Shown here one piece after another: positions 300 through 31,130 of a stretch of 32,000 nucleotides of DNA. Within the stretch, counting starts at the first letter, position 1. The number at the start of each line of letters is the position of its first letter. The position numbers were made by a program, and so were the translations under genes. The notes beneath the pieces are model-generated. The model made no database searches and was not told the origin of the DNA. It worked only from the letters and a program-made list of their open reading frames with translations. This stretch comes from Candidatus Saccharimonadota bacterium (GTDB lineage Bacteria; Pseudomonadota; Gammaproteobacteria; Johnevansiales; Johnevansiaceae): NCBI RefSeq assembly GCF_000300075.1, contig NC_018677.1:240001-272000 (forward strand). The letters run 5' to 3'.

Positions 300-2826
300 T
301 TAGAATTTAAACTAACTAGGGTCTGATTTGTATTTATTCATTAAGTTGTAAAATTTTATTGTATTTATTACTTTTAATTTATAAGTGTTGATCGTTACTG
401 TGTTTTTTACTTCCTTTTTATAGTTTTATTTTTGTTTTGCTCTATGTTTTTTATTGCTGTTATTTTGTTGTTATTTCTGCTTCTTTTGTTTATCTTTTTA
501 TTTGTTATATTTATATTGTTATTGTTATTGTATTTGTAGTTGTAGTTGTAGTATCCGTTTGTTAGTATTTGTTTCATGTTATTATCTTGTTGATGTTATT
601 AGTTAGGTTCTTGGCTTTTTATTAGTTGTTGATATTTTAAAAGTTTTTAGTATTTGTTTAGTTCAATTGATTAAAATATTTGTTGTTTTGTTTAATTGAT
701 GTTTATAGTATTTTGTTTATAGGTGTTAGTTAAAGTTAAGATTAAAGTTTATATTAGTTTTTTTTGTTTTAAAACCTGTACAGTTATACAGTATTATAAA
801 GAATTTAAAAGTTTTTATTTTTAGCTGGTAGTTTATTTGTTATTAGTTTGTTATAAGAGGTTTTGTTATTAGTTTGTTTTATATTATTTAAAGATTAAAG
901 ATGTTTTGTTATTAGTTTAAAAGTTTTTAGATGTTTAATCTATATGTTATATAGTAAAAAAAATGTAGTTATTTTGTTGTTCTGTTATTAAATTTTAGAA
1001 GTTAGTAGTAGTAGTTATGTTGTTAGATATATGTAGTTATTTAAAAACTATTGTTGTTAAATATTAATTTGTATTAAGTTTATGTTATTTATTTATTTTT
1101 GTTTGTTTTATTATTCTGTTATTTGTTACTTAGTAGATAGTTGTAGTTATTTGTTTATTTGTAGTTAAAGGTTTAATGAACTATTGGTAGTTAGTTGTGT
1201 TTTTTTTTTTTTTTTTAAGACTTTGTTAAACAAAAAGACGCTAATATTTGTATTGTATAGACTAATGTATTTTGTTGTTGTTTGCTGTTGGCTGTTGATT
1301 ATTTATTTAATATGTGATGTGTAGTTTTTTATTGTTAGGTGGTTAAACTTATTTGTGCTAGTTGTTTATCTGTTGAATATTGATATGCATTTTTTTTTGT
1401 TTGTTTTGTAAACTGTTTACTGTTATTCTTGATATGTAATTGGTTTTATCTTTTGTAAGGTCTATTATGTATTTTTATATGTTTTTTAAAAAACAAATAA
1501 TTTATTGTTTGCTGTTGATTTTAATATATTTATTGTAAGGTTTTAGGTGTAGTGATATGCCTTTGTTTTTTTTTTTAGGTGTTGCTTTTTATGTGATGTT
1601 GTAAATTGTGTAATAAGTGAGATACTTTATCATATGCAATAATTTTGTATATTGTTATAATTTGTTAAAAAGATTTGTTGGGAGAGTTGAGATGGAAGAT
1701 GCTTAGTTAAAAGTTGTAAATTTGAATGTTGTAAGATACTGTGTTAAAAGTTTAATAATATTTTATATAAAGTGTAAGTTGTTTTGTTGTGAGCTGTGAG
1801 CGTTTAGTTGTTAATTTTTTAGAGTTTAGAGTTTTGTGTTGTTGTGGTTATTTGTTAGAGTTTTAAATCGTTGATTTTATCTGTTAGTTATTGTTTAGAG
1901 ATTTTGGGTTTTGAGGTTTCTTTTAAGATTTAAGCGGTTGCTTTTTTGAGTTTTTTTTTGTTAGTTATAGGTTATAATTGTTATTTAAATCTGTTAGTTA
2001 TTGTTTGTTATAGGTTATTTTTTAGTAATTAGAGTTTGCTTTAAAGTTTAAAGATTAAAGATTTTTGTTTTTTATCTGTTAGAGGTTTTTTTTAGATTTT
2101 AGATATTATCTGCTTGCGGTTATAGTTTTAATTTTAGATATTTAGTTATTAGAGGTTATCTGTTGATGTTAGAGGTTATGTTTTGTGGTTAGATTATTAG
2201 ATATTTTTTGTTTGTATGTTTTTTACTATTTACTTTGTAAATATTTTTGTTATATATTTAACAATATGTTGTATTTTTGAGTTTATATGTAGTATAGTAG
2301 TGTGTTGTATAAATAAGAAATAGTTTATTAGAGGTTTGTTTGTTAGATATTAGAAGTTAGAGTTTTTGTTTTTTAGAGGTTAGCTTAAAGAGTTTTGAGT
2401 TTTGATGTTTGTTGTTTAGATAAAAGATGTGTTTTTAATTAGATGTTAGATGTGATTTGTTTTTTATTAGATGTTTAATTATTAGAACTTTGTTTCTTGA
2501 TTCTTGATTTTAGAATTTAGAATTTAGAGGTTAGAGTTGTTAGGTTAGAGGTTTGTTTTTTAGATGTTTATTTAAAGATGTTAGTGGTTATGTTTTGTGG
2601 TTAGAGTTTTTTATAGTTGCTTGTTTTTTAGATTTTAGATTTTAGAGCTTAGTTATTAGATGTTGCTTAAATTAGATGTTAGATGAGATTGTTAGATGTG
2701 ATTTTTAGATGTTATATATTTGAATTGTTTTATTGTTTTATTATTTGAGTTTTTAAGTTAATATCTTAAGCACTTAAGAGTTTAAGATAAGAGTTGAATG
2801 TAAGGGTTTAATTTTTTAACATTGTA
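300..2826. other. C-depleted (G+T-rich on + strand) non-coding arm, the left arm of the gltP-metF spacer.
   Basis: Hand counts of 60-nt lines give G 12 / C 1 for 961-1020 and G 8 / C 1 for 1021-1080. There are no long ORFs. The arm has dense TTAGAGGTT / TTAGATGTT / ATCTGTTAG motifs, short tandem runs (e.g. 530-555 TTGTTA/TTGTAG units) and a T17 run at 1200-1216. Boundaries are +/-50 nt. Confidence 0.85.
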
Positions 2827-2849
2827 AAATAAAAAGCAGTCGTTAATAC

Positions 2850-3900
2850 ATAACAATATACTCCTCTAATATCAACAACCTACAACCTACAACCTACAAC
2901 CACAAACCACAAACCATCAAATAAACATCTAACCATCTTATTTAATCATATAACATAACATAACATAACATAATATAACTTATACAAAATCTAATTTACT
3001 TTCTTTTGTACAACTTATAACAACAAAAAGCCTTAAACATCTAACATAAAATAAAAGAAACATCTAATAACTAAGCTCTAAACAACAAAAAACAAATTTA
3101 AATAAGAAACAAACAACATAAAAACTCAAACTCTAAAACATAAAAACTACAAACTACAAACTCTAAACTCTAAACTCTAAAAAATAAACATCTAATAAAC
3201 AACATAAAATAGTATAGAGCATACAAAAGTATACCTATAAAAAAAGCAACCTCTAATAAATAATAAACAACCAAGAATAAATAATAAAAGCAAACATTTA
3301 ACTTCTAAAAAACAAAAACTCTAACATCCAATAAATAAACCTCTTAAAATTAAACCTACAACATCTACTTTAAAACACATCTTTTATCTTAATTTAATAA
3401 CATATAACAATTACATCTAAATAACTAATAAAAGAAACATCTAATAACTAACATCTAAAATCTAAAAAAACACCTCTAATAACTAACAGCTTTAATCTTT
3501 AAATCAACCTAAAACCTCTAACAAACAAATAACAGTTTTAAGCAACAAAACTCTAACAACATAAAAAAAACATCTAACAGATAAAAAATTAAAAACACCA
3601 AACATTAAACATTAAAACAACAAATAACCACAAAACATTAAACAAAACTCGATCCTCGAAAAAAAATTAAAACTAACAGCAAAAACTCTAAAAGAAAACT
3701 AAATTGTAACAAACAATAACTAACAGATTAAAGCAAACACCAAACAAAGCTCTAAACAAAACAACATCCAACAGATAAAAAAAAATAACAACAAAAACAC
3801 AAAATCAGAAAACATAACAACAGAACAGCTAATACATAAAAATAACAAAAAATACAAGAATAAAAAAAAAACAATAAAAACTAAAAGAATAATAAAAAGA
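2850..3900. other. G-depleted (A+C-rich on + strand) non-coding arm, the right arm of the gltP-metF spacer.
   Basis: Line 3061-3120 has G 2 / C 11 by hand count. The motifs are reverse complements of those in the left arm (AACCTCTAA, CATCTAA, CTAACAG). Microsatellites include (CAACCTA)3 and (CACAAAC)2 at about 2878-2915, (ACATA)5 at about 2950-2975, and (CAAACTA)/(CTCTAAA) runs at about 3150-3185. Confidence 0.85.
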
Positions 3901-3908
3901 AGAAAAAG

Positions 3909-4739
3909 ATGAAAAAAAATGAAGTAGAAATAAGTTTCGAGATGTTTCCACAAAAAGAGCATTATAAAACAAAAGTTTTTATAAAAAAAATAAAACAGTT
4001 ATATAAAAAAAAAGATATAAAATTTTGTTCAATTACATATGGAGCTGGAGGATCAAACAAAAAAAATACGCTTGAGATTATAAAAAATATAAAAAAACAA
4101 AAAATAGAATGCGTACCACATTTAGCTTGTATTACAACGAAAGAAAAAGACTTAATAAAAACTTTAAAAAGTTATAAAAAAATAGGGATAAAAAAAATAT
4201 TAGCACTAAGAGGTGACATCAAAACAAACACAAAAACAAAGTTTATAAATTCACTAGATCTATTAACATTAATAAAGAAAAATTTTTATAAAAACTTTGA
4301 AGTGATAGTAACAGCTTATCCAGAAATGCACCCCAACACTATAAGTTTTGAAAAAGAAGTTTGCTTTGTTATAAAAAAATTCATGTTTGGAGCCAATAAA
4401 GCAATTACACAATATTTTTATGATCCAGATTCATATTTTTATTTTGTAGAGAAAGTTAGAAAATATGGTGTTGAAAAGCATATAATTCCAGGCATAATGC
4501 CTATAAGTAATGTAAACAACTTAATAAATTTTTCAAAAAAATGTGGTGCTAATATTCCAAAATGGATATATAAAAAATTAGAATTTTGTAAAACTGACAA
4601 TGACATAGAACATATCGGTAACGATATTGTTATTAAATTATGTGAAACATTAATAAAAGGTGGTGCCCCAGGTTTACATTTTTATACACTAAATAAATTA
4701 GAACCAACATTAAATATTTTAAATTCATTAATAACATAA
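3909..4739 (+). CDS. metF: 5,10-methylenetetrahydrofolate reductase
   Basis: Full-length 276-aa ORF. Segments ISFEMFP, SITYGAGGS, PHLACI, LALRGD, TAYPEMHP, GANKAITQYFYD, IIPGIMPI and HFYTLN are colinear with E. coli MetF as I recall it. Confidence 0.9.
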   Translation: MKKNEVEISFEMFPQKEHYKTKVFIKKIKQLYKKKDIKFCSITYGAGGSNKKNTLEIIKNIKKQKIECVPHLACITTKEKDLIKTLKSYKKIGIKKILALRGDIKTNTKTKFINSLDLLTLIKKNFYKNFEVIVTAYPEMHPNTISFEKEVCFVIKKFMFGANKAITQYFYDPDSYFYFVEKVRKYGVEKHIIPGIMPISNVNNLINFSKKCGANIPKWIYKKLEFCKTDNDIEHIGNDIVIKLCETLIKGGAPGLHFYTLNKLEPTLNILNSLIT

Positions 4740-4740
4740 A

Positions 4741-6094
4741 TTATTTGCCTAAATAACGTAAAGCTTTTCCATTCATTATTTTTTTTTCTATTTGCTCCAA
4801 TGAAATACCTTTTGTTTCTGGTATTACAAATATAGTAAAAAAGATAAAAGCTATATTAGCTAATGCTAATAAACTAAAAGTAAGTGGTCCACCAATTTAA
4901 CTTAGTATAGTTAAAAAGAACGTTCCAAGTAACATATTAGCTAACCAATTGTCAATTGGCTATTGGCTATTGGCTATTGTTGAACAACTTATTCCAAATT
5001 ATCGTCCATACAATTGTTGTATTTCTGCACATAAAATCCAAATTATAGGGCCAGCTGACATAGCAAAACCAGCAACAAAGATTAATAACGAAAATATAGA
5101 TAAAAATTGTATAAAGTGTAATGTGCGTGTGTATAAAATTAAACTTAATAATGCAATTCCTATAGCCATAATAGTAAAACAAAAATATAAAATGGGTTTT
5201 ATACCTACTTTATCTACTAATATAATAGCGACTATTGTTGATAAAACGTTAACTAAACCAACAGTTAAAGTACTTAACAATTGCGGTTTAGTTCCTGTAA
5301 AACCATAAAATTCAAAAATTTTAGGAGAAAAGTATATCAAAACGTTCATGCCTGTCAATTGCTGTATAAATTGTAAAAAAATGCCTTTAAGTACAGATCT
5401 ACGAAAGTTAATATTTTTTTTAAAAGAAATTAAATCCAAAGCTTTTATTTTAAAAATTGATGCTGTTAAAATTTTCGTTAAGTTCATTATTAACTTCAAA
5501 CTTAGATGCTCTTAAATTGTGTAAAAGTTTTATGGCTTCACGGTTTTTATTTGTAGAAGCTAGCCATCTAGGGCTAGCAGGAATTAATAATATGCAAAAA
5601 AATAAAAGTATTGAAGGAACAATTAAGAGTTCTAACATACTTCTCCAATTTTGTAAATAACTTTAAATAAGTTTTGATATTAAAGCCAAAAGTGTTCACA
5701 TCGTAACCATAAATTGATATAAGGATATTGTCATTCCTCTAATACTTTTTTGAGTTATTTCTGCTAAATATAAAGGAGCAGTAAATGATGCCGAGCCCAC
5801 AGATTAACCAATTATTATACGAGCGATAATTGATATTTTTGTAGAATTTGCAAATACTGTTAGTACCGCACCTACAACATAATATGTTGAACTAAGTAAT
5901 AATGATCTTTTTATACCAGTTGTTTGTGATACAATACAATACAATACAATACAAGTATATAATGCGCAAATATAAGCTCCCCAAATCATAGAGCCTACTA
6001 TACAACCCGCAATGTTAGTAGATAAATTTAATACGTTTGTAAAAAAAGGTAAAGAACCTGAAATAACACCTATATCAATTCAAAAAAAATACAT
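4741..6094 (-). pseudogene. MFS sugar:H+ symporter (GalP/AraE/XylE-like), inactivated.
   Basis: The minus-strand translation is colinear with GalP (IDIGVISGSLPF, GIKRSLLL, TAPLYLAEI..IRG, PASPRWL, NFRRSV, QQLTGMNV, FAMSAGPIIWILCAEIQ, IDNWLANM, PETKGISLEQIE). It is interrupted by at least 7 in-frame stops: TGA at 6080-6082 and 5696-5698, TAA at 5804-5806, 5663-5665 and 4996-4998, plus a TAG and a TAA further 3'. There is one frameshift near 5450-5470. The N-terminal TM1 region is missing. Microsatellite insertions are (GGCTATT)3 at about 4958-4980 and (ACAAT)4+ at 5931-5955. Confidence 0.85.
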
Positions 6095-6119
6095 AATAAA
6101 AAATATACAACAAAAAAGA

Positions 6120-6480
6120 AAGAACAAAAGGTACGATTTTAGTAAAGTTGTTTGAAAAATTGGTTTAATGAGAAAAAAAAATGTAAATTAGTAGTGGAAA
6201 AGAAATGGTTGTATAAAAAAGTGAAAGTAAGGAGAGAAAGGTTAAGTTCATTGCTGTAATAGTAGAAGAAAAGAAGGTTGACAGTTTAGTTTTTAAAAGG
6301 TATAAGTTTTGTTACGGTAGTATGGTAGATATTATAGATTTTGTTTTCTATTTTAGTTTTAGCAATTATGTTGATTTTGTTTTTGTTAATGATTAATAGT
6401 TTCTGTTGTGGTTTAGTGGATTGCTCATTATGTCTTTTTGTGGACTTTTTGTTTTGTGGTTTATGTGTGAAAAAGTTTAA
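6120..6480. other. Short C-depleted (G+A/G+T-rich) spacer segment between the transporter pseudogene and zwf.
   Basis: By eye, 6120-6300 is purine-rich and 6300-6480 is G+T-rich, with very few C. The two ORFs in the track here (6286-6498 -, 6341-6556 +) are low-complexity. Confidence 0.6.
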
Positions 6481-6547
6481 CATAGAACTAATCTCCATAA
6501 TCTTTATTATTTTAGATAATTATAATATAATAATATTTATTTTTTTT

Positions 6548-6552
6548 AGGAG
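6548..6552 (+). promoter_or_regulatory. Shine-Dalgarno-like AGGAG upstream of zwf.
   Basis: AGGAG lies at 6548-6552. ATG codons follow at 6553, 6556 and 6562. Only 6562 has conventional spacing (9 nt), so the true zwf start may be 6562. Confidence 0.45.
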
Positions 6553-7932
6553 ATGATGTTTATGAAAATAATTGTAAAGAATATAACAAGTTTAAGTTTA
6601 ATCATGTTTGGGGCATTAGGAGATTTAGCATTAAGAAAATTATATAATTCACTATTTATATTATATAAAAAGAATATAATAAATAAAAAAATTAATATTT
6701 TATGTTTAGCACGAAAAGTTGAAACATTAAACACATTTAGATATACCATTTATAAAAGATTAATCAAAGCTAACTATATTAACAATAAAAGAGATTTAGT
6801 AAAACTTATTAACTTTATAAACTGTTTATATTATTTAAACATAGATTTTACTACTCTAACACATTTTAAATTCATAAAGAACCAGAACCAGAACCAGAAC
6901 CTAAAAAATAACTTATCAAAATTAGTTTACTTTGCAGTATCTAGCAACATATTTAAAATAATATGTAAATATCTGAATTTAAATAAACAGTTAACAAAAA
7001 CAGCTAAAATCATATTAGAAAAACCCATCGGCTGTAATTTAAAAAGTTCAATAAATATAAATAATTATATTAACAATATTTATTTTGAAAGATCTATTTT
7101 TCGTATAGATCATTATTTAGGAAAAAGACAAGTAAAAAATTTATTGTCTTTAAGATTTTTAAATCCTGTTTTTTATATGTTATGGAAGAAAAAATACATT
7201 ACACATATTGTTATCAATTTAGCAGAACATTTAGGTATTGAAGACAGGTGGGGATATTTTGATAAAACAGGCCAATTACGAGATATGGTACAAAATCATT
7301 TAATACAATTATTATCGATGATAACTATTTGCATACCAAAAACAAAACAAATTAGTGTAAAAAATATATATAAAGAAAAAATTAAAATATTAAAAGATTT
7401 AAATAATAGTTTTTTAACGGTTGATATAAAGTATGGGCAATACATTTCAAACAAATTTAAAAACAAAATTTTTAATGGATATCTTGAAGAAAAAAATTCA
7501 AATAAAAATTCATCAACGGAAACATTTATTTATATAAAAACAAAAATAAATAATTTTCATTGGTATGGTATTCCTTTTTTTTTAATGTCAGGAAAAAGGT
7601 TAAAACAAAAATTATCACAAATAAAAATATATTTAAAAAAAAATAGTTTGAATAATGACTTAAATAATAAATTGATTATTAATTTACAACCCAAAGAAGA
7701 TATAAATTTAAATAAGTTCAAAATAAAGCAAATGTCTTTAAATAAGAATAACTACTTAGATTCATATGATTTTTTAATTTTAGAGGTTATAAAAGGAAAA
7801 CAAGATTGGTTTGTTAGCAAAGAAGAAATAGATTATTCATGGAGGTGGATAGATAAAGTTATACATATTTGGAAACAAAAAAATATTCCTATATTTTATT
7901 ATAAATCTTTTACATGGGGTCCTATTGGTTAA
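6553..7932 (+). CDS. zwf: Glucose-6-phosphate 1-dehydrogenase
   Basis: 459-aa ORF with MFGALGDLALRKL (the GAxGDLAxRK dinucleotide motif), EKPIG, RIDHYLGK (active-site motif) and MVQNHLIQLL. It contains an in-frame (AACCAG)3.7 microsatellite at 6880-6901 encoding NQNQNQN. Confidence 0.9.
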   Translation: MMFMKIIVKNITSLSLIMFGALGDLALRKLYNSLFILYKKNIINKKINILCLARKVETLNTFRYTIYKRLIKANYINNKRDLVKLINFINCLYYLNIDFTTLTHFKFIKNQNQNQNLKNNLSKLVYFAVSSNIFKIICKYLNLNKQLTKTAKIILEKPIGCNLKSSININNYINNIYFERSIFRIDHYLGKRQVKNLLSLRFLNPVFYMLWKKKYITHIVINLAEHLGIEDRWGYFDKTGQLRDMVQNHLIQLLSMITICIPKTKQISVKNIYKEKIKILKDLNNSFLTVDIKYGQYISNKFKNKIFNGYLEEKNSNKNSSTETFIYIKTKINNFHWYGIPFFLMSGKRLKQKLSQIKIYLKKNSLNNDLNNKLIINLQPKEDINLNKFKIKQMSLNKNNYLDSYDFLILEVIKGKQDWFVSKEEIDYSWRWIDKVIHIWKQKNIPIFYYKSFTWGPIG

Positions 7933-8900
7933 AGTTTGTTATTAAACAAAGCATCAGCTGACCCTAATAAACCTATCCATTTAGATTTAACTAACCAAGT
8001 TGAAATTTCTTTATTATAAAAACTCATTCTTCCTTTATTGTCAAAAGAATTACGAAAATCACTATTATCTAAGATTTTTATGATTCTAGGTAATATTCCT
8101 CCACATAAATACACTCCTCCTTTAGCTCCTAAAGTTAACGCCATATCACCTGTTACATGACCTAATAGTTTACAAAACATCAAAATAGTTTTATATGCTA
8201 AAGGATCGTTTTTTTTTAAAGCTGCTTTTGTAATGGCATCAGGCGTTGTTAAAACATTATAAGAGTGGTTAATATAATAATTAACATGTGCATAATATAA
8301 ATCTACTATTCCTTGTCCACAAAGTATGCGTTCAATAGAAACACGCTTATAATTATTTTGAAACCAATTTAAAATATATACTTCAAAGTTATCAATTGGC
8401 GCAAAACTGATATGACCCCCTTCCCCAGAAAATGGGATCCATGAATTTTTAGTATGAATTAAACCGGCAATTCCTAATCCAGTTCCAGGTCCTATTAAAA
8501 TTTTATTACTATTATTATTAGTTTTTCCGTATCCAAGTTTATACAAATCTTTTGCTTGAATATGAGTCAACCCTAAGGCTATCGCAGTAAAATCGTTGAT
8601 TATTTTTAACTTTTGTAAGTTCAGTTTATGTTTTAATTCATATTTTGCTATTGTCCAAGAATTATTTGTCATTTTTATAAAATTAGAGTAAACAGGACAA
8701 GCAAACGCTAAACAAGCTTGTTTAGGATAATCACAACCAACTAAAGAAATATATTGTTTTATAACTTCATAAACATTTAGATAATTAATACATTTAAATA
8801 TTTTTATTTTATATAATTTTAATTGATTTGTTGATACTAAAGCTAAAGCTAAACGAACATTCGTTCCGCCTATATCACCTACTAATGCTAAATGATTCAT
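7929..8900 (-). CDS. glk: Glucokinase
   Basis: 323-aa ORF. LVGDIGGTNVRLALA, INDFTAIALG, GPGTGLG, GEGGHISFAP, ERILCGQG and LCGGILPR are colinear with E. coli Glk. Its stop codon overlaps the zwf stop (TTAA at 7929-7932). Confidence 0.9.
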   Translation of the reverse strand: MNHLALVGDIGGTNVRLALALVSTNQLKLYKIKIFKCINYLNVYEVIKQYISLVGCDYPKQACLAFACPVYSNFIKMTNNSWTIAKYELKHKLNLQKLKIINDFTAIALGLTHIQAKDLYKLGYGKTNNNSNKILIGPGTGLGIAGLIHTKNSWIPFSGEGGHISFAPIDNFEVYILNWFQNNYKRVSIERILCGQGIVDLYYAHVNYYINHSYNVLTTPDAITKAALKKNDPLAYKTILMFCKLLGHVTGDMALTLGAKGGVYLCGGILPRIIKILDNSDFRNSFDNKGRMSFYNKEISTWLVKSKWIGLLGSADALFNNKL

Positions 8901-8905
8901 ATATG

Positions 8906-9361: not shown

Positions 9362-9385
9362 ATACTTTGATAGGTTATTAATAAA

Positions 9386-11810: not shown

Positions 11811-13790
11811 TATTTTTTGTTTTTTTTGCTGTGTTTTCTGCTTTAAAATCTTTTCTTTTTTATTAGAGGTTGCTTTGATTATTTAGAGTTTAGAGGTTTG
11901 TTTTTTAGATGTTAGATTAGTAGATAGATGTTTGTTTATTTAGTTTTTAGGTTTTAACTTTATAAAAGTTATGCTAAAGAAATGAAATGATTTAGTAGTT
12001 GTTTGTTAGATTTATGCTTTAGTATTTAGTACTTATTTGCTATTTGTTTGATTTGTGGTTTGTCATGGTTATATTAATTGAAAATTTGTTATTTAAAAGC
12101 TTTTAAATGTTGTTATATTAATGATTTTGCAGTAAATTCTTTTTTGTTAGAGTTTAGAAAAGTTGTAGTTGTTAGAGATTAGATTTTAAAAATTTTAGTG
12201 TTTAGATGTTAGTTTCTTAGAAGTTTGGTATTTAATGATTAATTCTTGCTTAAAAGTTGTTTCTTTTTTATTATTAAGTTGTTGTTTTTTTAAAGTTGTT
12301 AGATAATAATAAGTGCTTGTTGTTATTGGTTTACTTATTTTTGGTTATTAGTTTTGTTTATTTTGATTGTTGTTTTTACTAAAACTTTGTTTGTTTAAGT
12401 ATCGATTGATGTTTAGTTGTTAGCCGTTTAAAACTTGTTGATTTGTAATTTGAGTGTATAATTTTTGATGGTTAGTAGTTGTTTAGTTATTAGAGTTTAT
12501 ATTTTTAGATGTATGTTGTAATATTAAAATGTTGTTAAAGAGGTTTATTGATAGTTGTTTAGTTATTAGAGTTTAGAGTCTTGATATTTGCTGTTAAGTT
12601 ATTAGTTGTTATTTATTTGAGGTTTGCTGTTAAGTTATTAGTTGTTTTGTTTGTAGATTTTATAAAAATTATTGTTTGGTTGTTATAGATGTTGATGTTT
12701 GTTGTAATGTTATTAAAAATGGTTTGTTAGTTGTTAGTTGTTAGAGCATAGATATTTGATTAATGGTTGTTTAGTTGTTGGTTATAAAAAAAAGAAATGT
12801 TGTTTATTCGTTGATAGAGGTTTGGTGTAAAATGATGAGTTGTTAATTGATAGAGGATTGTTAGTAGTTGTTATTAGCTGATAGAGTTTTGGGGTTTTGT
12901 AGTTTGTAGTTAGAGCTTAGTTATAAGATGGTTGTAAAAGGGGTTATTTAGTTGTTAAATTGTTAGTAGGTTTGTGGTAAGAGGATTATTGTTTTGTTCT
13001 TAATAAAATTGTTGTTAAATATAGAAAGAAGAAGAATAGAGTTGTATAGAAGAAATAACCAAGTTAAAAAAAGAAGAAGAAGGATATAAAAAGGTTAGAG
13101 GTTGTTTTGTAAGCTTGAAAAAAGAGGTTTGTTGGTTGTTTTGTAAGCTTGAAAAAAGAGGTTTGTTGGTTGTTTTGTAAGCTTGAAAAAAGAGGTTTGT
13201 TAGTTGTTTTGTAAGCTTGAAAAAAGAAGTTTGATGGTAGGTGCTATGTGTTTTGTTGTAAAAGGATAAAGGTTAAAGGTTAAAATGGTAATTTGTTAGA
13301 TGAATTGTGGTTAGTTGGTAAAAGTTTATCTGTTAGTTATTAGAGTTTTGAAAATAGTTGTTAATTGTTTTTTTATCTGTTAGAGGTTTGTTTTATGTTG
13401 TTTAAATGGTAGGTGTAAAAAAAGGGTTTGTGTTTTGTTAATAGGAAAATTGTGTATATGTATGTGTTTGGTGTTTTGTTAAAGTTAGTTAAGTAGTTTT
13501 ATATTGTGGAAAGTTGAAGGAAAGAGTTGATGGTTAAAGGTTTGAAGTTTACAGCTAAAGATAACAGTTGTATAGACGTAAAAAGGGTAAGTTAGGTGTG
13601 TGTATTTAAAATAGCATAAGTGAGATTATTAAGTGTTAAAAGAAAAATATGTTGAATTGATAATAATAAGAAAATTGATGAAAGAGTTCTGTTTAAATAC
13701 AAAGTAATTTATAAAAAAAAATGAACATATAACAGAAAATTGAGTTTGAATTTGTAAGTAGACTTAAAATAGATAGTTAAAAAGAAGGTA
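11811..13790. other. C-depleted non-coding spacer between glnS and cysS.
   Basis: Line 12481-12540 has G 11 / C 0 by hand count. The spacer is T-rich at the glnS end and becomes G+A-rich after about 13000. It carries many TTAGAGKTT / GTTAGTTATTAGAG motifs. Confidence 0.85.
13101..13236. repeat. Tandem repeat, 4 copies of a 34-bp unit.
   Basis: The unit GTTGTTTTGTAAGCTTGAAAAAAGAGGTTTGTTG starts at 13101, 13135, 13169 and 13203. The first three copies are near-identical and the fourth has a few substitutions. Confidence 0.9.
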
Positions 13791-13791
13791 A

Positions 13792-13798
13792 AGGAGGT
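13792..13798 (+). promoter_or_regulatory. Shine-Dalgarno AGGAGGT for cysS.
   Basis: AGGAGGT lies 6 nt upstream of the TTG start at 13805. Confidence 0.6.
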
Positions 13799-13804
13799 GT
13801 AGAC

Positions 13805-15244: not shown

Positions 15245-16940
15245 TACGATACGAGACGAGATATGACTTCTTTTTTTTTTGCTTATGTTTTAGTTTTTTT
15301 TTTTATCTGTTAATTTTAGCTTTTTTTTATACTTTATACTTTATGCTTTAGTTTTTAGCATCTTTGCATTTTGTTTTTTGTTATGGTATTTAATTATTTT
15401 ATTTGGCTTATTCAGTTCTGGTGTTTTATGTGTTTTGCTGTTAATTTTTATGTTTTTTTTGCTTGTGGTTACTAGTTAAAGCTCTGGTATTTTATGTTTT
15501 TTTTTATTTGTTATTTGTTTTATGTGTTGCTGTTATTTGTTATGTTAAAAGTAGTTGCTTTATGTCTTTCTGTTATTTTATTTCGGTTTAAATGATTTGC
15601 TTTATGTGTTGCTGGTATTTGTTATGTTTTAAGGCTTTGTGTATTGCTGTTAATTCTTATGTTTAAAGTATTTGTGTTATACTAAAAGTAGTTAAACTGT
15701 TAATAATGATAATGTTATAAGATTTTTTGTTATGTTTTAAGGCTTTGTGTATTTATAATGTTTTGTGTAAATGTTGTTTGTGTGTTTTTTTCTTTTTGAT
15801 GCTGTTAATGAGTTATGTTTAAAGGCTTTGTGTGTTGCTGTTTAGTTTATTTCTTTTTGATGTTATATATAATGTTTTTGTATTGCTGTTATGTGCTATA
15901 TAAATAGAGAATTGTTATATAAAAAGGTAGTATGTGTATGGTGTATAGATGGAAAGGTGTTATGTTAGTTGATGTGGATGGTAATTTGTTATGTAGAAAA
16001 AAGTAAGAGTTATATAAAAATGAAAAAGTTAAAGTTGTTTGGTGTGTTGATGGTATGTGGTTTGTAGAAATAGGGGGATTGCAGTTAGGTTATATGTAAT
16101 GCAGTTAGGTGGTTAGTGCGTTGATGTTGGGTGAAAAAAGTTGTATGTGTGATGATGATAGGTGTAAGGTATTATGCTGTATAAAGTAAGTGTTATATGG
16201 ATATAAGAGTAGAATTGCTGTTAAGAGTTAGAAGGTAGGAGTAAGGTGTTATGTGGTAGGTTAGATGGTAAGTGTTAAAGGTGTTGTTCGAAAAAGTTAG
16301 GTTGGTAAAATGACTATGCTAGTAGAAAAGTTTTATGGTTTTGATGGAATTTATTTATATGTGTATGTATAGTTGTTAAAAGCTCTAATTGGTTTTATAG
16401 AAAATGACTATATGCTATATGTTTTGGTGTAAGGTAAATTGGGTTAGTATTTAGTTGATATGGTTTGTGTTTTAGTTTAGTTAACTTTCATGGTTTGAAA
16501 AATATTTGTTGTAATTTGTGTAGAATAGGTATTAAAGTACTTGTTATGCAATAAGTAGTTGTGTAAAGTAATTGTTTTATGATTAATTTGTTATGTTATG
16601 TTAAAAGATTCGTGGTTAGATGGTTGTTGTTATGTGTTTTGATGAATGGTTAGGTATTGGTTTGGTGTAAAAGGGTAAAGGTGTTATGTAATTGGTTTGG
16701 TGTAAAAGGGACCTTATATAAAAAATATTTGGTTGTTCGTTTAAAAGAAAAAAGTTTGTTGTGTGTGGTTTTGCTATGAAAAGTAAAAGAGTTGTATACT
16801 AAAAGAAGGAAAGAAATTAGTTTTATGTTTTGTGAATAGCTTGTTTTGTTAAAAAGTTTTTTATATTTTGTTTAACTATTGCTTTTTTTGTATTAGTAAA
16901 AAAGATGTAAGATGTTAGATGTTAAGTAAAATAAATGCTT
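15245..16940. other. C-depleted non-coding arm downstream of tRNA-Pro.
   Basis: Line 15961-16020 has G 14 / C 0 by hand count. The arm is T-rich with GCTGTTA / TTATGTTT / GGCTTTGTGT motifs up to about 15900, then G+A/G+T-rich. A 25-34 nt module, GTTATGTTT(T/A)AAGGCTTTGTGTRTTGCTGTT, occurs at 15621, 15729 and 15812. Confidence 0.85.
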
Positions 16941-17653: not shown

Positions 17654-17705
17654 ATCCACTAACCACTAACCACTAACCACTAAACACCATCCACTAACCA
17701 CTAAT
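17646..17705. repeat. Heptamer microsatellite (CCACTAA)n that begins inside the tRNA-His 3' acceptor strand.
   Basis: The sequence reads CATCCACCATCCACTAACCACTAACCACTAACCACTAAACACCATCCACTAACCACTAA. The unit repeats the ATCCAC of the tRNA 3' end. Confidence 0.85.
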
Positions 17706-18960
17706 ATATTAGTTTTTTTTTACAATTAATAATACAATCTTTAAACAATCTATAAAACTGTTATTACTAATACAACAATTCTTTTTTTGTTAAAATAAAT
17801 ACAAATCAAAACTACACTAACTAACCTTTTAAATAATTTATAATAATACAAACACATTATATTTAGCAAACCACAATAACCTTTCTTAAAATTTAACAAC
17901 ACATAGCGTATAATATAACATAGTTAGCATATCATATATAAACTAAAAGCAAACATATGATAGTAAAACAACATCTTAAATACCCATTTATATTTACTAT
18001 ATATATAATATATTAAAACATAACATATGATTTACAAAAACAAGAAACAAAATTGTTAACAACAACAAACATACCATATACTTTATAAAAACAAATATTA
18101 ACAACAACAACTTTTAGAACACTTACATCTTAAAAACATCCTCAAATACAATAACAAACTCAACTCTTACATCAACAACATCTAACATCTTTTAAACATC
18201 CTCAATAACAACAACAACAACAACAACATCAACAACATCAAACATCAAACATAAAACATCTTACATATTACATATTACAAGAAAACTCAAGAACAACAAG
18301 ATCTAACATCTAACATCTAACATCTTAAAAACATCCTCAAAAACAATAACATATAAACTCTAAAACAACACATTCTAACAAAGAAATAAAAAACTCTAAT
18401 AACCCATCACCTATAAACCAATAACATATAAAACAAACAGATAATAAAAGCAACCATTAAATCTCTAAACTCTAAAAAGCAACATCTAGCAGACACTCAA
18501 AACTCAAAAAAGAAAACAAAAAACAACACAAACCTCTAAAAACAAATAACTAACAAATCAAAAAAACATCTAAACTCTAAAAACTAATAACAACAAAACA
18601 TATAACCTAAAAAATAATAATTAACATATAACCGCTTATAAATAAATAAAACAAAAACTAAACTCAAATAAATAAACCTCTAACAAAACAACTAACCTCA
18701 AAATAAAAAATCTAGCAAAAAAAGCAAAGGAAGAAAAAAGAACAACTTATAATAAATTAAAACATATAAGCTCTAAAAATAAGTTATATAATGACAGAAA
18801 AACATGACAAAAACAAATAGAAACTCTAACAGCATTTAAATAGCAAAAGGATATAAAACAAATATAACAAAAACAGATGTAAAAAAAAGCTTAGAACACA
18901 AAACATAAACACAAAATTTAACTAACAAAGAAATAACAAAACACTAAAAAAAAACAACAA
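17654..18960. other. G-depleted non-coding spacer between tRNA-His and the clpP pseudogene.
   Basis: Line 18541-18600 has G 0 / C 12 by hand count. It contains (AAC)n at about 18200-18230 and (ATCTAAC)3 at about 18300-18325. A module CATCTT(A/T)AAAACATCCTCAA..ACAATAACA occurs at 18126, 18186 and 18321. Confidence 0.85.
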
Positions 18961-18963
18961 ACA

Positions 18964-18969
18964 AAGGAG
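18964..18969 (+). promoter_or_regulatory. Shine-Dalgarno AAGGAG retained upstream of the clpP pseudogene.
   Basis: AAGGAG lies 12 nt upstream of the ATG at 18982. Confidence 0.4.
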
Positions 18970-18981
18970 TAAGGCGTAAAA

Positions 18982-19579: not shown

Positions 19580-19649
19580 AACAGCTTAATTTATTAATTG
19601 GTAAAAACATAGTTACAACAAGGTTTAAAATTTATGAAGGTAAAGTATT

Positions 19650-23687: not shown

Positions 23688-25385
23688 ATGCGTATTAATT
23701 ATTGTGGTAAAGTCAATCAAACAATTTTAAATTCATATGTCAAGTTATACGGTTGGGTAAATAAAATACGAGATCATGGTGGCATTTTGTTTTTAGATTT
23801 ACGTGATATGTATGGTAGAACTCAATTAGTGATTGATTCTAAAAAGCTTGATTTTACAAATTTTGTGTTAGCAAAAAAACTCAAATCGGAATATATTATA
23901 AAAGTAATAGGTTTAATAAAATTACGACCTGTAAAAGATGGTTTTACAAATAAGATAGATATATTTGTAATAGAATTAAACTTATTAAGTAAATCCATAA
24001 AGTTACCTTTTAAGTTATATGCTAAAAAAAAAATTAAAGAAGAAATAAGATTTAAATTTCGTTATATAGATTTGCGGCAAAAGAAATATATAAAAAAAAT
24101 ACTTATTCGCTCTCAAATAATTCATAAAATTAGAAGTTTTTTAGATATTAATAAATTTATTGAAATCGAAACGCCTATATTAAGTAATATTACTGTTGAA
24201 GGAGCACGTACTTTTATTATACAAAGCCATAAACAAACTTTTGCTTTGCCTCAATCACCTCAAATATACAAACAAATTTTAATGTGTTCAGGTTTAGATA
24301 GATATTATCAAATTGCTAAATGTTTTAGAGATGAAGATTTACGGTCTGATAGACAACCAGAATTTACACAAATTGATATAGAAACTTCGTTTATGAATAA
24401 ACAAGCAATAATTAATGTAGTTGAAAAAATGATTAAATCATTATTTAAAGAACTTTTACATTTTACGTTCTCATCAGCTTTTAAAATAATCAAGTATACA
24501 GATGCTATCAACAAATATGGAACAGATAAACCTGATTTAAGAGTTCCTATTAAAATAACCGATATAGAAGATGTTATTCCTCAAAGTTTAACTTGTATTT
24601 TTCTTAATAAATTACAAAAACTAACAAGTCAATGCAATAGAATAGCTGCTATTAAACTCAAAGGTGGTGTTTGTTTATCTCTTAAACAGATTATTAAGTA
24701 TATTTCTTTTGTTAAATTATATGGTGCAAAAGGGTTAATATGGATTAAGGTTTACAATATTAATTTAGGCTTAAATGGTTTACAATCTCCTATATTAAAA
24801 CATATAACAGATGAAGTAATACACAACCTAAAAAAAAGATTGCATTTAAAAAATGGAGATCTAGTTTTTTGTTGTGCTGATACAATAAACATTGTAAATA
24901 CTTCTTTATCCGTGTTAATAACACAGATAGCAAACGATTTAAAACTTTATATCAAAGCTTGGGCTCCTATATGGGTTGTTAATTTTCCTTTGTTTAAACG
25001 TGATATTGTAGGAACGTTAACATCTTACCATCATCCATTTACTGCACCTACTTCTACGTTAGACGATATAATATATAATCCAGAAAAAGCTTTTGCTAAT
25101 TCTTTTGATTTAATAATAAATGGAATTGAATTAGGTGGTGGATCTATTCGTATAAATGATTATAAACTTCAAAAAATAATATTCAAACTATTAGGTTTAA
25201 CACAGAGAACCCTTAATAATAATTTTGGTTTCTTTTTAAAAGCTTTTAAATTTGGTGTACCTCCGCATGGTGGATTAGCTTTAGGTTTAGATCGTATAGT
25301 AATGTTACTTACAAAATCTGATAATATTAGAGATGTTATTGCTTTTCCTAAAACTAATAAGTTTATTTGTCCTTTATCTGTTTAA
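23688..25385 (+). CDS. aspS: Aspartyl-tRNA synthetase
   Basis: I place the start at MRINYCGKV (ATG 23688), which aligns with the E. coli AspRS N-terminus MRTEYCG. The 50 upstream codons in the track ORF are low-complexity and overlap mgtE. Class II motifs are present: FRDEDLRSDRQPEFTQID, HHPFTAP, GGGSIRI and GLALGLDR. Confidence 0.9.
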   Translation: MRINYCGKVNQTILNSYVKLYGWVNKIRDHGGILFLDLRDMYGRTQLVIDSKKLDFTNFVLAKKLKSEYIIKVIGLIKLRPVKDGFTNKIDIFVIELNLLSKSIKLPFKLYAKKKIKEEIRFKFRYIDLRQKKYIKKILIRSQIIHKIRSFLDINKFIEIETPILSNITVEGARTFIIQSHKQTFALPQSPQIYKQILMCSGLDRYYQIAKCFRDEDLRSDRQPEFTQIDIETSFMNKQAIINVVEKMIKSLFKELLHFTFSSAFKIIKYTDAINKYGTDKPDLRVPIKITDIEDVIPQSLTCIFLNKLQKLTSQCNRIAAIKLKGGVCLSLKQIIKYISFVKLYGAKGLIWIKVYNINLGLNGLQSPILKHITDEVIHNLKKRLHLKNGDLVFCCADTINIVNTSLSVLITQIANDLKLYIKAWAPIWVVNFPLFKRDIVGTLTSYHHPFTAPTSTLDDIIYNPEKAFANSFDLIINGIELGGGSIRINDYKLQKIIFKLLGLTQRTLNNNFGFFLKAFKFGVPPHGGLALGLDRIVMLLTKSDNIRDVIAFPKTNKFICPLSV

Positions 25386-26460
25386 CCTTTTGTTTTTTTT
25401 TACAATAATAGGCTTAATCTCACTTTTGCTCAAAATATAACTTGTACCTTTTTTGTTTTCTTTTTTATGCTTATGTGTTAATTGTTCTTTTTATTTTAGC
25501 TACTATATGTTTTTTGTTTTTTTTTAATTTGTGTTAGTTGTTTCTAGTTAGTTTAATTTTATGTTTTTCTTTTGTTTTTTCCATTCATTGTTATATTATT
25601 TAACTTATTTATTGTATTTGTTTGCTGTTATGTGTTATATGTACTTGCTTATATTTTTATTAGCTGGCATTTTGTTAGTTAAATATTTTTTGTATATAGA
25701 ATATATATTAGTAGTTTAAAACTGTTTTTGCTGTGTGTTATGTTCTTTTAATTAAAATGGTAAAATGTTTTAGATACTTTTTTGTTTTATGTTTCTTAAT
25801 TTGGTGTATGTTTTGTTATATAATGTTGAAATAAATTAAAAAGTGTTATAAATGTGTGTGTTGTTTGGATAATAATATGTTGATTGGTTATTATTGTGTG
25901 TTTGTAAAAAATACATGAGTTAGGTTTTAGATAGGTTGATTTGGTGTTTGTAAAAGTTGTGTAGTAGGTGGAATGTTATTAAAAAGGTAAAGAGAAGTTG
26001 TACTGAAAAAAAATAGTAGTTGTGTATTATATAAAGAAAAATAAAAAAATAGTAGTTGTGTATTATATAAAGAAAAATAAAAAAATAGTATGGAAAAAAA
26101 GGTAGTGTGTAATAGAAAAAAAATAGTTGTGTATTATGGAAAAGAAGTTAATGTTATGTAGAATGAGGAGTATAAAAAAGGTTTGCCGTAAATTGTTAAT
26201 AATAGGTGTAATGAGAAGGAAGTTATATAAAATAAAAATCAGATATGTGTAAGCTGTAGGTCTTATATTGAGTGTTGTGAAGTAAAAAGGATAGAGTGTT
26301 TGTTTTGTGTGCTGTGAAGTAAAACGATCTTACCATTAAAATGTATAAAAATTAGATTTAAATAAAGATGTGTGTTGTTAAACTAAAAGACGGTTGAGTT
26401 ATGTTGTGTTAAAAAAAAGCGAGTATTGTAAGCAGTTGTATATATATGTAGTTAAACGAT
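25386..26460. other. C-depleted non-coding spacer downstream of aspS.
   Basis: The spacer is T-rich with GCTGTTATGTG-type words to about 25850, then G+A/G+T-rich. Composition becomes mixed from about 26460 to the pal-like start. Confidence 0.75.
26005..26140. repeat. Tandem repeat, about 36-bp unit, 2 full copies plus 2 partial or diverged copies.
   Basis: ATAGTAGTTGTGTATTATATAAAGAAAAATAAAAAA starts at 26013 and 26049. A truncated copy lies at 26085 and a related AATAGTTGTGTATTATGG at about 26120. Confidence 0.85.
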
Positions 26461-26731
26461 AGACAATATTTAAAAAGGTTGTTTTGTAATATAAAAGGTA
26501 ATAGTGCTTGTTGAAAACAACAACTTTGAAATAGCATATACACAGTTGTGTAAAAGAACAAGTAGCCATAGATTAGTAATAAGTCAGTATTTACGATTAA
26601 ATATCTAAAAATACAATATAAAAACAGTAAAACGAAAATATTGGTACGTTTGTTATTAAAATTAAAATATATAAAATAGATTGTTAAAGAGGTAATATAA
26701 AGTACGATTATAGGTTATAAAAACATAAAAT

Positions 26732-27412: not shown

Positions 27413-27439
27413 ACTTTAATACAAACACGTTTTTCTTTT

Positions 27440-28860
27440 TATAACTGTGTGTATATTTATTCTTCTTTATGTGGTTTATTATTATATAGTTTCTGATATT
27501 TGTGCTTTTTATGTTTTGATTTTATTTTATGATCTTTATCTCTTTTGTATTCTGTTTCTCCTCTCTTTGTATTATTTTATACAACATATACTATTTTTTA
27601 ACTTATTTATGTGTTATAGTTTATTCTTTTTGTGGTTTTTTGTTATCTGATATGTATTTAGTTACTTAATGTTGTACTAGTTGTTAAAAGATCATAGGTA
27701 AGTGTTACTTAAGTTACAAGATAAAAGATCATAGGTAATATTAAAATATATAAAAAAGAACATAATAGGTGTTGTGGTAAATATTTAAATGATTTATGTT
27801 GAATGGTTAATAGTTTGATGTTGGTGTTAAATATTAAAAAGTTTGTTTGTAAGGTTGATTTTTTTTGATGGTAGGTTTTTATATAAAAGAAGTTAAGAAG
27901 AGATAGTTTGTGTTAAATGGTTCTATTATAGATTGTGATATGTTATGTGTTTCAGTTTGTTTGTATTTACTGTATGTTATTAGTTGATAAATTCGTGTTA
28001 CCTGTTTAGTATATATATTATGTATTAGCTGTTTAGTAGTTATGTCTTGTGTGTTATGTGTTACTTTATAAGTTCTGTGTTATTTATGCTTTAAGATTTT
28101 GCTGTTATGCTTTGTTTAATTTAAATCTTTTTGTATTTTTATGATTAATGTTTGTTTTATGCTTTAAAAGTTGTGTGTTTGTTTTTTAGTGTTTATTTTG
28201 TAAATGTATTGTTTTTAAAAATATTTGTATTAGTCTTATGTTATGTTATGTTGTGTGTAGTGGTTGTAGTTAAGTAATTATGTTTTGTAGTTCTGTTTCA
28301 TGTGTGTTTAGTAGTTTTTTATTGTTAATGTTGTGTATTACTTATATTAGTTGTAATTTATAAAATTTATTGTGATATGTTTTGAGTAAATTGCTCTTAG
28401 GTTATGTGGTTTTGTAATACTAGTTATGGGTTGTAGTTTTGAGTTTATGTCTTGTTGTTTGTTAAAAAAAAAAGGGTGTATAACGATAAGTAAATTTTGT
28501 ATTAAAATTAAAAGTAAGTGTTTAGCTTATGCTATTATATGATTTTGAAATTGTAGTTATGTTTAATAATTAGTGTAAATTAGTTTTTGTTTGTTTTATA
28601 GAAAGTAGCTCTAATGCAAAATTTAAGTGTTTGTGGCTTAATTGTTATGCTGTATGAGAAAGTATAGCATTTACATAAATTAGTTGTGTTATAAAAGTAG
28701 GATGTATGTTATTAACGATAATGGGTTTATTTTTTAGAGGTTTATAATTTAATTATTTATATTTATTAAAGTTTGTTAAATTGTTGTATGTAGTAGAAAA
28801 GTAGCTAAAGTTTGTATGGAATTGGTAAAAAATTTACAGTTCAGTTCAGTTCAGTTAAAA
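27440..28860. other. T-rich, C-poor non-coding arm downstream of the tRNA-Ser pair.
   Basis: The first 200 nt or so are T-rich with both C and G. From about 27660 the arm is G+T-rich with very few C (GTTATG, TGTGTT and GCTTTAA words). It ends at a (CAGTT)4 microsatellite at 28837-28856. Confidence 0.8.
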
Positions 28861-28979
28861 AATAATAAGTTATAGAACACCACCATATATAAGCGTTAGG
28901 TTTTAAATTGTAAAAGTTTGTATTTACATATTAAGCTAATACGCCATATTTACAAAGGTTGTTGAAGGTATAGATCATT

Positions 28980-31130
28980 TATATTTAATAACGACAAATA
29001 CAAAACTCTATACTAAATAACCGTTATTTTAATTAAAGTGTATTCTACACAAAACTACATTTTATCAACAACAATATAATTTACACCTGATTCTTTGACC
29101 AGACAGACAATTAAGATCAACACTACAATCTCAGATAGCAATAAACCTCAAAAATACAATCTCAGCCAGCAAAAAACCTCAAACTTAAAACTCAATACAT
29201 ATATCTTTTTATTTTATCTCACATCAACATATAAGAAAATTTTTATCTCAAATAGTATATTTAATGGATATGTACAACAAATTTTTAAATTATACAGTTA
29301 ATTTTATATTCATATATAAAAAACTATTTCTTTATAATCATAAAAAGATATAAGTAAAACACAAACCTTTAACAGTTAATATCACATTTTACTACATCAC
29401 ACTTAACCTAAACTCATTCTTTACAACATTTTAACACATAACTCCTAATTATTTATTTTTTTAAAAAAACACACAATTAAAACATAAAAACTAATTTTTT
29501 ATCACTCTATCATACACCTTCCACCTTTCCTCTTTCACAACTCACAACAAAACATCTAACCAGTCATATATTACACCTTTCTTCTTTTGTCTTATAACCT
29601 TTTACATCTCCTTTCTCTTATCTACCTTTTACAACTCACCTAATATCCAATAACTACTAACAAGTAACAAGTAACAAAAACAAATCTCTAAAACCTGCTA
29701 CCCCCATTACTATCAACTACCTACAACTCACCTATTATCTTTAATACAACTCATCTAGTTTCTAAAATCAATTACTAACAAGTAACAACAACAAACCTCT
29801 TCTAACATCTATTCTCTAAAATCAATTACTAACCTCATCTAACAACAATTAACTCATCTATTCTCTAAATAACAACACATCCTTTTTTATAACTATTTTA
29901 AATTTTACAAAACTTATCTAACAACTTTTAAATCCTCTATAAATAATAACACATTTTCTTTATTTTCTTTTTCTATAACACATCTTTTAAGCAAACCTCT
30001 AATAAATAATTAATAACAAACAATCAACGCAACCATTAACAACTTATCCTCTAACCATTTACACAACTATCCTCTAATTAATAACAACTAATAAAAGCAA
30101 CCATTATCATCTTTTATATAACACTATTTTATCTAATTTAAGCTACTTCTAAACATTAACAACTTAACCTCTAACAAACTAACCTCTAATAACTAACAGA
30201 TAACCATTTTATTTATTACACCATCTAACATCTAACATCTAACCTAACACCTAACACCTCTAACAACTAACAAACAACAAACAACAAACTAACCTCTTTA
30301 ACATCTTTAAAGCAACCTCTAATAACTAAACCTCTTACCATCATCACATAACCTCTTAAAATACAAACTACAACCTTTATCTTCTACCAACATTCCTCTT
30401 TTTAACAAACATCCTACAAACTCCAACATCTAATCTCTTAAACCACCAACTATTCCCTTTTCTTCTTTTTTTTTACAACACTAATTATAATTATGTACAA
30501 CTTCTTTGTTATTAGTAAAATTTAACAACAATACAATTAAGAAACCATTATACAAAAAACAGTATTAATAGACAGAATACAACATCTAAAAAAAAAAATA
30601 ATACAAATATGTAAAAAAAAAATATCTAACAGATAAAAAAAAAGAACAACAAATATACAACCTCTAACAAAGCAACCTCAAATCAAAGAAATAAAGATCT
30701 AAAAAATATAAAAAAATACAACATATAATAAAAATATTTAAAACAAAAAATAAAGAGAATAACAATAATATAACAATTGAATAAAAAAAATAACAACATA
30801 ACAGATAATGTTAAAACACAAAAAGCAATAACGAAGAAAGCAAAACATAAAAAGAAAAAGTTTTAAAATAAAAAAAAAAAACAACAAGTATCTAAAAACA
30901 ACATAAAGAAACATTAAACAATAACGATTGTAGTTTAAGTAAAATAATAAAGAAAGAATATTATTCAAACAAAAAGTATTAACAAAACCAATAAATCAAA
31001 ACGAAACAAGAAATATAAATAAACACATTTTTAATAACTTGTACAACACATTTTAATAAATTACAAATATACATATCAGCAAACAGCTATAAAAAAAAAA
31101 CATATAAAACATAAAACACAATTTTAAAAA
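28980..31130. other. G-depleted non-coding arm upstream of lipA.
   Basis: Line 30181-30240 has G 1 / C 15 by hand count. Composition is C+T+A-rich at about 29500-29700 and A-rich after about 30500. Local direct repeats include ACAATCTCAG..AGCAA.AAACCTCAAA x2 at about 29125-29190, TCTAAAATCAATTACTAAC at about 29762 and about 29815, (CATCTAA)3 at about 30225-30245, and (CAAACAA)n at about 30270-30290. Confidence 0.85.

Follow-up and report, generated by a model that had tools for sequence, protein, structure and literature searches.

Candidatus Portiera aleyrodidarum from the whitefly Bemisia tabaci is described, in passages of three papers (Sloan & Moran 2013, PMC3673631; Santos-Garcia et al. 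2015 and 2020, PMC5322561 and PMC7821994), as having unusually long intergenic regions and a coding density of ~69%. The same passages list dnaQ, dnaN, dnaX, holA, holB, mutL, ruvC and ssb as genes lost from this lineage, report that its genome-wide GC-skew pattern has disappeared, and record dnaQ as a pseudogene in the Portiera of the whitefly Singhiella simplex. A spike of 7-bp tandem repeats, accompanied by 7-bp indels, is described for the B. tabaci lineage by Sloan & Moran (2013, PMC3673631). Here we analyse a stretch of 32 kb (positions 240,001 to 272,000 of contig NC_018677.1, hereafter the window) and, within it, the 9-mer ATCTGTTAG, a word that recurs in distant intergenic spacers. 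A preliminary description, made from the letters of the window, had presented this word and its longer relatives as a motif family whose orientation is locked to the base composition of the spacer arm in which it lies.

Judged from its proteins, the window can be assigned to the primary endosymbiont of B. tabaci: exact GlnS and MetF proteins are encoded, within colinear DNA, on complete genomes of 350-359 kb (CP007563, CP016304 and CP016343) and in the JGI records PWF and PQ2WF, and a close homologue of CysS (P0001, on CP016343) carries the NCBI name Candidatus Portiera aleyrodidarum. With a G+C content of ~23%, the window combines housekeeping and other genes (metF, zwf, glk, def, aroE, glnS, cysS, a split clpP, cls, mgtE, aspS, lipA and tRNAs) with kilobase spacers of extreme GC skew. 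Together with ~11 kb of flanking genome, the sequence covered amounts to ~43 kb, or 12% of the genome. The spacers were split into nine arms, each with 2.6-5.1% of its depleted base. Annotated genes flank every copy of the word and all copies are intergenic, which places them in the intergenic DNA characteristic of B. tabaci Portiera. Our reading, to which we assign a probability of about 0.8, is that the word is a lineage-specific variant heptad of the Portiera spacer repeats, spread by duplication, oriented by base composition and without a function of its own.

The exact 9-mer ATCTGTTAG occurs nine times in the window, five times on the plus strand and four times on the minus strand (Table 1). 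Dinucleotide shuffles of the whole window contain it 0.27 times on average and at most twice. Loss of the enrichment against third-order Markov (Markov-3) shuffles of each arm had been named beforehand as a refuting outcome, and the enrichment survives: per-arm models yield 0.73 copies by simulation (maximum 4 in 300 runs) and 0.64 analytically, corresponding to an over-representation of ~12-14-fold. Under the same per-arm models, other 9-mers, among them GTAAGTGTT, TGGTTAGTG, GAGTTTAGA and AGTTATTAG, are similarly enriched, so that ATCTGTTAG is not exceptional in this respect. The longer matches noted in the preliminary description are borne out letter by letter: the 16-mer CTCTAATAACTAACAG is exact at 3474-3489 and 30184-30199 on the plus strand and at 13330-13345 on the minus strand, with three more copies at two mismatches, and the 19-nt match between 13327-13345 and 30184-30202 is likewise exact. 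The looser relatives that it listed are all present at or near the places given, including those near 15305, 3768 and 2158, with the correction that the copy put at about 30615 really spans 30623-30642. The flanking T- or A-run, said to be consistent, accompanies six of the nine copies (at least three T directly 5' of the core) and is missing from the other three.

The copies are embedded in arrays of seven-base units. The TTAG-type arms hold 231 TTAG tetramers, and the distance from one to the next peaks at 7 (57 cases), every other spacing from 4 to 12 being represented by 0-5 cases; the distances between all pairs show further peaks at 14, 21-23, 28-30 and 35-37. This peak and its multiples identify the arms as degenerate TTAGNNN arrays and match the published 7-bp repeat spike. 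The heptads found most often directly 5' of a TTAG are TTAGTTA (10), TTAGATG (9), TTAGAGT (8) and TTATCTG (7). At the core of the motif, the variant heptad TTATCTG runs, in register with the array, into the first bases of a further TTAG heptad, and the 19-mer, too, is in heptad register (TATCTG-TTAGTTA-TTAGAG). The 7-bp periodicity, with the motif in phase, thus makes the word part of the heptad-repeat DNA of B. tabaci Portiera. Tandem Repeats Finder reports many arrays with periods of 7, 14, 21, 28 and 35, the motif being present in some of them, and assigns several motif copies to short local duplications whose periods are 20, 24, 25, 29 and 35. The distribution among arms follows the same division: the motif is confined to arms A1, A2, B1 and E2, which together with C2b are the arms rich in TTAGAG and TTAGATG, whereas arms C1, D1 and E1, which carry TGTTATG and GCTGTTA words, have no copy, nor do the two C-poor arms just outside the window (proS-aroQ and lipA-lysC).

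The similarity among copies extends beyond the word itself. In a self-comparison of the arms by BLAST, scored at +2/-3 and controlled with Markov-3 simulated arms, 34 matches reach at least 50 bits, against 0-5 in the simulations, and 87 reach at least 40 bits, against 7-16; single matches below ~50 bits lie within the simulated range, so the significance resides in the aggregate excess. Scoring at +1/-1 gave meaningless compositional alignments of ~60% identity between all arms. All nine copies of the motif lie in a self-match with another copy. Among these matches is a module of two copies, repeated directly between 1964-2094 and 13272-13395 (70% over 135 nt), and a further motif-bearing match joins 3422-3489 to 30130-30199. 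For the copies at 1879, 1989 and 2074 there are mirror counterparts at 3770, 3720 and 3574, the centre of symmetry lying near 2830-2870, and from this mirrored order it follows that one inverted duplication of a three-copy segment explains six copies.

Comparison with other Portiera genomes places the growth of these spacers within the lineage. Every motif copy is present in all strains and lineages compared; because the spacers as a whole are 98-99% identical to the window, this conservation is uninformative. The indels that separate the strains are dominated by lengths of 7, 7, 14, 14, 21, 35 and 42 nt, with some of 5, 10 and 15, and so fall largely on multiples of seven. Spacer sequence from more distant lineages cannot be aligned to that of the window. 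The spacer between glnS and cysS, which is 2 kb here, measures ~10 nt in two compact lineages with the same gene order (L131 and L132), or 10-15 nt when S. simplex Portiera is counted, and it follows that the 2-kb spacer is newly made DNA and not a decayed gene. No spacer copies of the word were found in the two compact lineages. Equally polar, near three-letter arms, C-poor and then G-poor, occur in S. simplex Portiera (L128) and in a third lineage, known from a metagenome (L129). They are built from other units (GTTTT, GAGAT, TTAAG and GTAATG in L128; TGTAAGTGTTT in L129), which take opposite orientations in opposite arms, and ATCTGTTAG is absent from both (21 kb). Lineage-specific words on a common polar architecture are what descent by duplication predicts and not what a conserved signal predicts.

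The orientation lock emphasised in the preliminary description is real, in that no arm contains a copy in the wrong orientation, also when the ~11 kb of extra flanking genome is included; as evidence, it adds nothing of its own. For the reverse complement of ATCTGTTAG, the Markov-3 models of the arms predict 0.0000 copies, and nearly all other enriched k-mers likewise lack reverse-complement copies there. Since an arm with 3-5% C predicts practically no reverse complements, the lock is uninformative. Each arm comes close to a three-letter sequence, in which a word with two G and one C is possible on the C-poor strand only. Apparent oriented motifs in strongly skewed DNA therefore call for a null model that takes composition into account.

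To account for these observations, we propose that the intergenic regions of this lineage, once tens of bases long, grew by several kilobases through the build-up of degenerate short tandem repeats. The repeat unit of one class of arm is a TTAGNNN heptad on the C-poor strand, and the 16- and 19-mers are three heptads in a row, TTATCTG TTAGTTA TTAGAG. The pattern of similarity suggests that such units spread in three ways, namely by local tandem duplication and slippage, by the copying of segments of ~30 to several hundred nt between spacers, and by at least one inverted duplication that would have produced the mirror-image arms on either side of ~2850. The word itself would have no function of its own and would serve as a marker of descent among B. 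tabaci Portiera repeat arrays. Of the earlier suggestions, the one that regarded the word as the seed from which the spacers grew comes closest to the evidence, as the TTATCTG unit is indeed carried by tandem and segmental duplications; it fails in that this unit is one of many and not a single seed. Two observations weigh against our interpretation. Among the C-containing 9-mers of arms with only 3-5% C, TTATCTGTT ranks first in frequency, a rank that we attribute to descent. Furthermore, nine perfect 9-mers stand in segments that are otherwise only ~66-90% identical, which could hint at a constraint on the word. Perfect 9-mers in diverged segments are nevertheless expected, because the alignments were seeded on exact words and the copies were ascertained in this way.

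An alternative is that the word is a functional cis-element with meaningful polarity, either a site bound by a DNA- or RNA-binding protein that the cell has kept or a termination or RNA-processing signal flanked by its T- or A-run, as had also been proposed earlier. Its strong over-representation even against the Markov-3 models, its leading rank among C-containing words of C-depleted DNA, the T-run beside six of the nine copies and the retention of every copy in all B. tabaci Portiera genomes compared would all agree with such a role. The last of these says little in spacers that are 98-99% identical throughout, and other heptads are equally or more enriched. In addition, the properties expected of a signal are missing. 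A consensus scan of 1-19500 found no terminator-like site, where 2.2 are expected in shuffles, and the T-run lies 5' of a core that has no stem, unlike the G+C-rich hairpin followed by a T-run of intrinsic terminators; no hairpin was found at the word, its folding having a z-score of about 0. Distances to genes are inconsistent, varying from ~140 to ~2000 nt (~-140, -190 and -340 to the start of metF, ~-560 and -1000 to that of lipA, and 1200-2000 to that of the SDF gene). Neither the expanded spacers of S. simplex Portiera and L129 nor the intergenic regions of compact Portiera contain the word. A signal of this kind is accordingly quite unlikely. Several specific candidates were also rejected. 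As a promoter, the word would read CTAACAGATAAAA in gene-sense orientation, and at two copies inspected by eye no -35/-10 pair with a spacing of 16-18 nt was seen. Sigma-70-like promoter matches in 1-19500 number 111, fewer than the 153 ± 11 of dinucleotide shuffles. Compared directly with the DnaA box TTATCCACA, TTATCTGTT has four mismatches, at positions 6 to 9, where one or two at most would be tolerated. An origin from the 3' end of aspS (last codons and stop TTATCTGTTTAA, 25374-25385) was judged a coincidence, the adjacent arm having no copies. Finally, the pattern TTTATCTGTTAGNNNTT, which with 14 specified bases is too unspecific for 596 Gb of sequence, had among the matches listed only chance occurrences in unrelated bacteria.

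The word might instead be the core of a small mobile element, resembling repetitive extragenic palindromic (REP) sequences or miniature inverted-repeat transposable elements (MITEs), that was inserted independently into several spacers. Copies in both orientations are dispersed over four arms, which belong to three spacers, and include an exact 19-nt match between sites 17 kb apart; this would agree with such an element, which the preliminary description had also suggested. When the nine copies were aligned with 50-nt flanks, however, mean column identity was 44%, against ~39% expected from the base frequencies of the arms, and conservation was limited to a core of ~20 nt; the alignment contained no conserved boundaries, terminal inverted repeats, target-site duplication or fixed length. 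Nor was a palindromic stem detected, as six motif-centred stretches gave minimum free energies of 0 to -9.5 kcal/mol (z -1.7 to +0.7), no better than shuffles. The copies keep the phase of the heptad array around them, form part of longer duplicated segments that are colinear and not of discrete insertions, and do not differ in number among the strains compared. We therefore regard a mobile element as highly improbable. The copies might also have arisen convergently, through context-dependent, strand-asymmetric mutation that spares C in contexts such as T/G-C-T-G-T-T. In the arms C is indeed followed by T in 73% of cases, compared to 50% in the background, CTGTT accounts for 51 of 488 C positions, and the two strands differ in their polarised substitutions, with C>A at 7 of 374 C sites and G>T at 5 of 1873 G sites. 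Markov-3 models capture such short contexts and yet predict only 0.64 copies, the copies share 29-338 nt of flanking similarity and a mirror-symmetric order, and arms of equal composition (C1, D1, E1, proS-aroQ and lipA-lysC) have no copy of the word, nor have the lineages L128 and L129, whose composition is the same; together these results make convergence unlikely. Descent by duplication of a variant heptad remains the reading that we prefer.

For the motif itself little is at stake, and the polar arms are of greater interest. Arms of kilobase length in which C or G makes up 3-5%, and whose polarity flips within a spacer, recur with different units in three Portiera lineages, and the two-armed spacers run C-poor and then G-poor on the plus strand in five of five cases in these lineages. 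The single-arm spacers are C-poor on the plus strand, including two between convergent genes just outside the window. As candidate causes of the polarity we considered resection at breaks, convergent transcription and, in a cell that lacks SSB, selection against folding. Arm alignments across B. tabaci Portiera genomes (L001-L004, L127 and L141-L144) contain 47 substitutions that can be polarised (T>A 17, T>G 8, C>A 7, G>T 5, A>C 5, G>A 3 and A>T 2), and all but three of them are transversions; per site, besides the asymmetry of C>A over G>T given above, T>A lies far above A>T. These numbers, which are small and come from alignments that are error-prone in repeats, hint at a possible active maintenance of the polarity, as opposed to simple inheritance. 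The word and its heptad family might even form part of a strand-polar system in a bacterium without SSB, sliding clamp, clamp loader or proofreading, in which the arms would be kept by strand-asymmetric mutation or repair, or by selection for single strands that cannot fold, and TTATCTG-TTAG units would act as sites of template switching or priming; we consider such a role for the word improbable. The arms may nonetheless report on replication and repair under a minimal replisome, dnaQ status being given for the B. tabaci and S. simplex lineages only.

A number of further observations concern the arms and their surroundings. Three TTAGNNN arms, in inverted orientation, sit directly upstream of metF, clpP and lipA. 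Spacers C and E each combine one arm of either class and are hence not palindromes; A1/A2 is the only mirror-symmetric pair. In the window, tRNA-His is followed at once by a heptad array, (CCACTAA)x7 at 17656-17704, and in the compact lineage L131 a short-read contig ends (~11670-11698) in (AACCTTT)n ~70 nt 3' of tRNA-His, which suggests independent heptad expansions at this site in two Portiera lineages. Two young, near-perfect tandem repeats, a 34-nt unit in 4.1 copies at 13100-13238 (96% matches) and a 36-nt unit in 2.3 copies at 26007-26090 (100% matches), are far better preserved than the degenerate arrays around them. Short-read assemblies from the Logan collection (L005, L006, L137-L140 and L145-L150) consistently end at the edges of the long spacers, and public short-read contigs thus under-represent this repeat DNA. 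Relative to other Portiera, a sugar transporter gene (~4750-5700, minus strand) and clpP (18985-19579, plus strand) are in fragments, a remnant of the clpX zinc finger is kept in CP016343 only (window region 19580-20800), and where lineage L132 has an intact ruvC, the window has the spacer between aspS and an open reading frame (25400-26700).

Table 1 Copies of the motif and arms of the spacers (window coordinates unless a lineage is named).
Feature	Position	Strand	Context
ATCTGTTAG exact (TTTTATCTGTTAGTTATTGTTT), C-poor arm	1879..1887	+	in 29-nt tandem duplication 1826-1887
ATCTGTTAG exact (AAATCTGTTAGTTATTGTTTGTTA), mirror of 3720 copy	1989..1997	+	inverted match 1985-2022 with 3732-3695, 87% over 38 nt
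ATCTGTTAG exact (T6-ATCTGTTAGAGGTTT), mirror of 3574 copy	2074..2082	+	inverted match 2036-2382 with 3620-3299
ATCTGTTAG exact, G-poor arm 5' of metF	3574..3582	-	94% over 34 nt with 13369-13402 (from 3555-3588)
ATCTGTTAG exact, G-poor arm 5' of metF	3720..3728	-	inverted match 3732-3695 with 1985-2022
ATCTGTTAG exact, within 19-mer TATCTGTTAGTTATTAGAG (13327-13345)	13328..13336	+	two-copy module shared with 1964-2094
ATCTGTTAG exact (T7-ATCTGTTAGAGGTTTG)	13375..13383	+	in two-copy module 13272-13395
ATCTGTTAG exact, within 19-nt reverse-complement match to 13327-13345	30193..30201	-	13320-13348 with 30209-30181, 90% over 29 nt
ATCTGTTAG exact, A9 flank, G-poor arm 5' of lipA	30626..30634	-	direct match 3563-3892 with 30615-30924
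16-mer CTCTAATAACTAACAG; reverse complement CTG-TTAGTTA-TTAGAG in heptad register	3474..3489	+	in 35-nt tandem repeat 3399-3498
Degenerate copy (T11-ATCTGTTAAT)	15305..15311	+	~60 nt 3' of tRNA-Pro, in 20-24-nt tandem duplication
Arm A1, 3.4% C, degenerate TTAGNNN array	400..2800	+	approximate mirror of A2, centre near 2830-2870
Arm A2, G-poor, TTAG-type on minus strand	2860..3900	-	directly 5' of metF
Arm B1, C-poor, TTAG-type	11812..13560	+	between glnS and cysS
Arm C2b, G-poor, TTAG-type	17655..18960	-	ATCTGTT degenerate copies only, at 18436 and 18872
Arm E2, G-poor, TTAG-type on minus strand	28900..31180	-	5' of lipA
TGTTATG/GCTGTTA-type arms	C1 15270-16950, D1 25400-26500, E1 27420-28850		all directly downstream of genes
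Two-armed spacers	window 400-3900, 15270-18960, 27420-31180; L128 18110-21395; L129 11560-13470		

Among known systems, REP sequences with their composite form, the bacterial interspersed mosaic elements (BIMEs), and MITEs resemble the present family in being short, intergenic, multi-copy and found in both orientations. ATCTGTTAG differs from them in having no palindromic stem-loop, terminal inverted repeats, defined length or conserved boundaries, and in lying in phase within a heptad array. With the oriented words Chi and the FtsK-orienting polar sequences (KOPS) it shares a perfect correlation of orientation with local strand composition. By contrast, base composition accounts in full for the bias of ATCTGTTAG across the window and its flanks, the expected number of reverse complements being ~0; the polarity switches every 1-2 kb and not at the origin or terminus of replication, and the word is confined to non-coding repeat arrays.

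A further likeness is to satellites and minisatellites of the eukaryotic kind, which also form degenerate tandem arrays whose variant units are propagated by slippage and by segmental and inverted duplication and mark descent. Here the setting is instead a 350-kb bacterial endosymbiont, in which highly degenerate arrays of 1-2.5 kb lie between essential genes. Closest of all are the microsatellite-rich Portiera spacers themselves, as described in passages of PMC3673631, PMC5322561 and PMC7821994: the genome is the same, the repeats are intergenic with a 7-bp periodicity and indels in multiples of 7, the lineage is without dnaQ and other replication genes, and such repeats are absent from compact Portiera lineages. 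What those passages give are repeat lengths and counts and not unit sequences, and neither they nor the literature returned by a search on Portiera asymmetry mention the word ATCTGTTAG or the near three-letter, strand-polar arms. As far as the literature searched shows, the TTAGNNN/TTATCTG family and its dispersal between spacers are thus first spelled out here, and they add to the published picture a handy marker with which the growth of Portiera spacers in B. tabaci can be traced through heptad slippage and segmental and inverted duplication.

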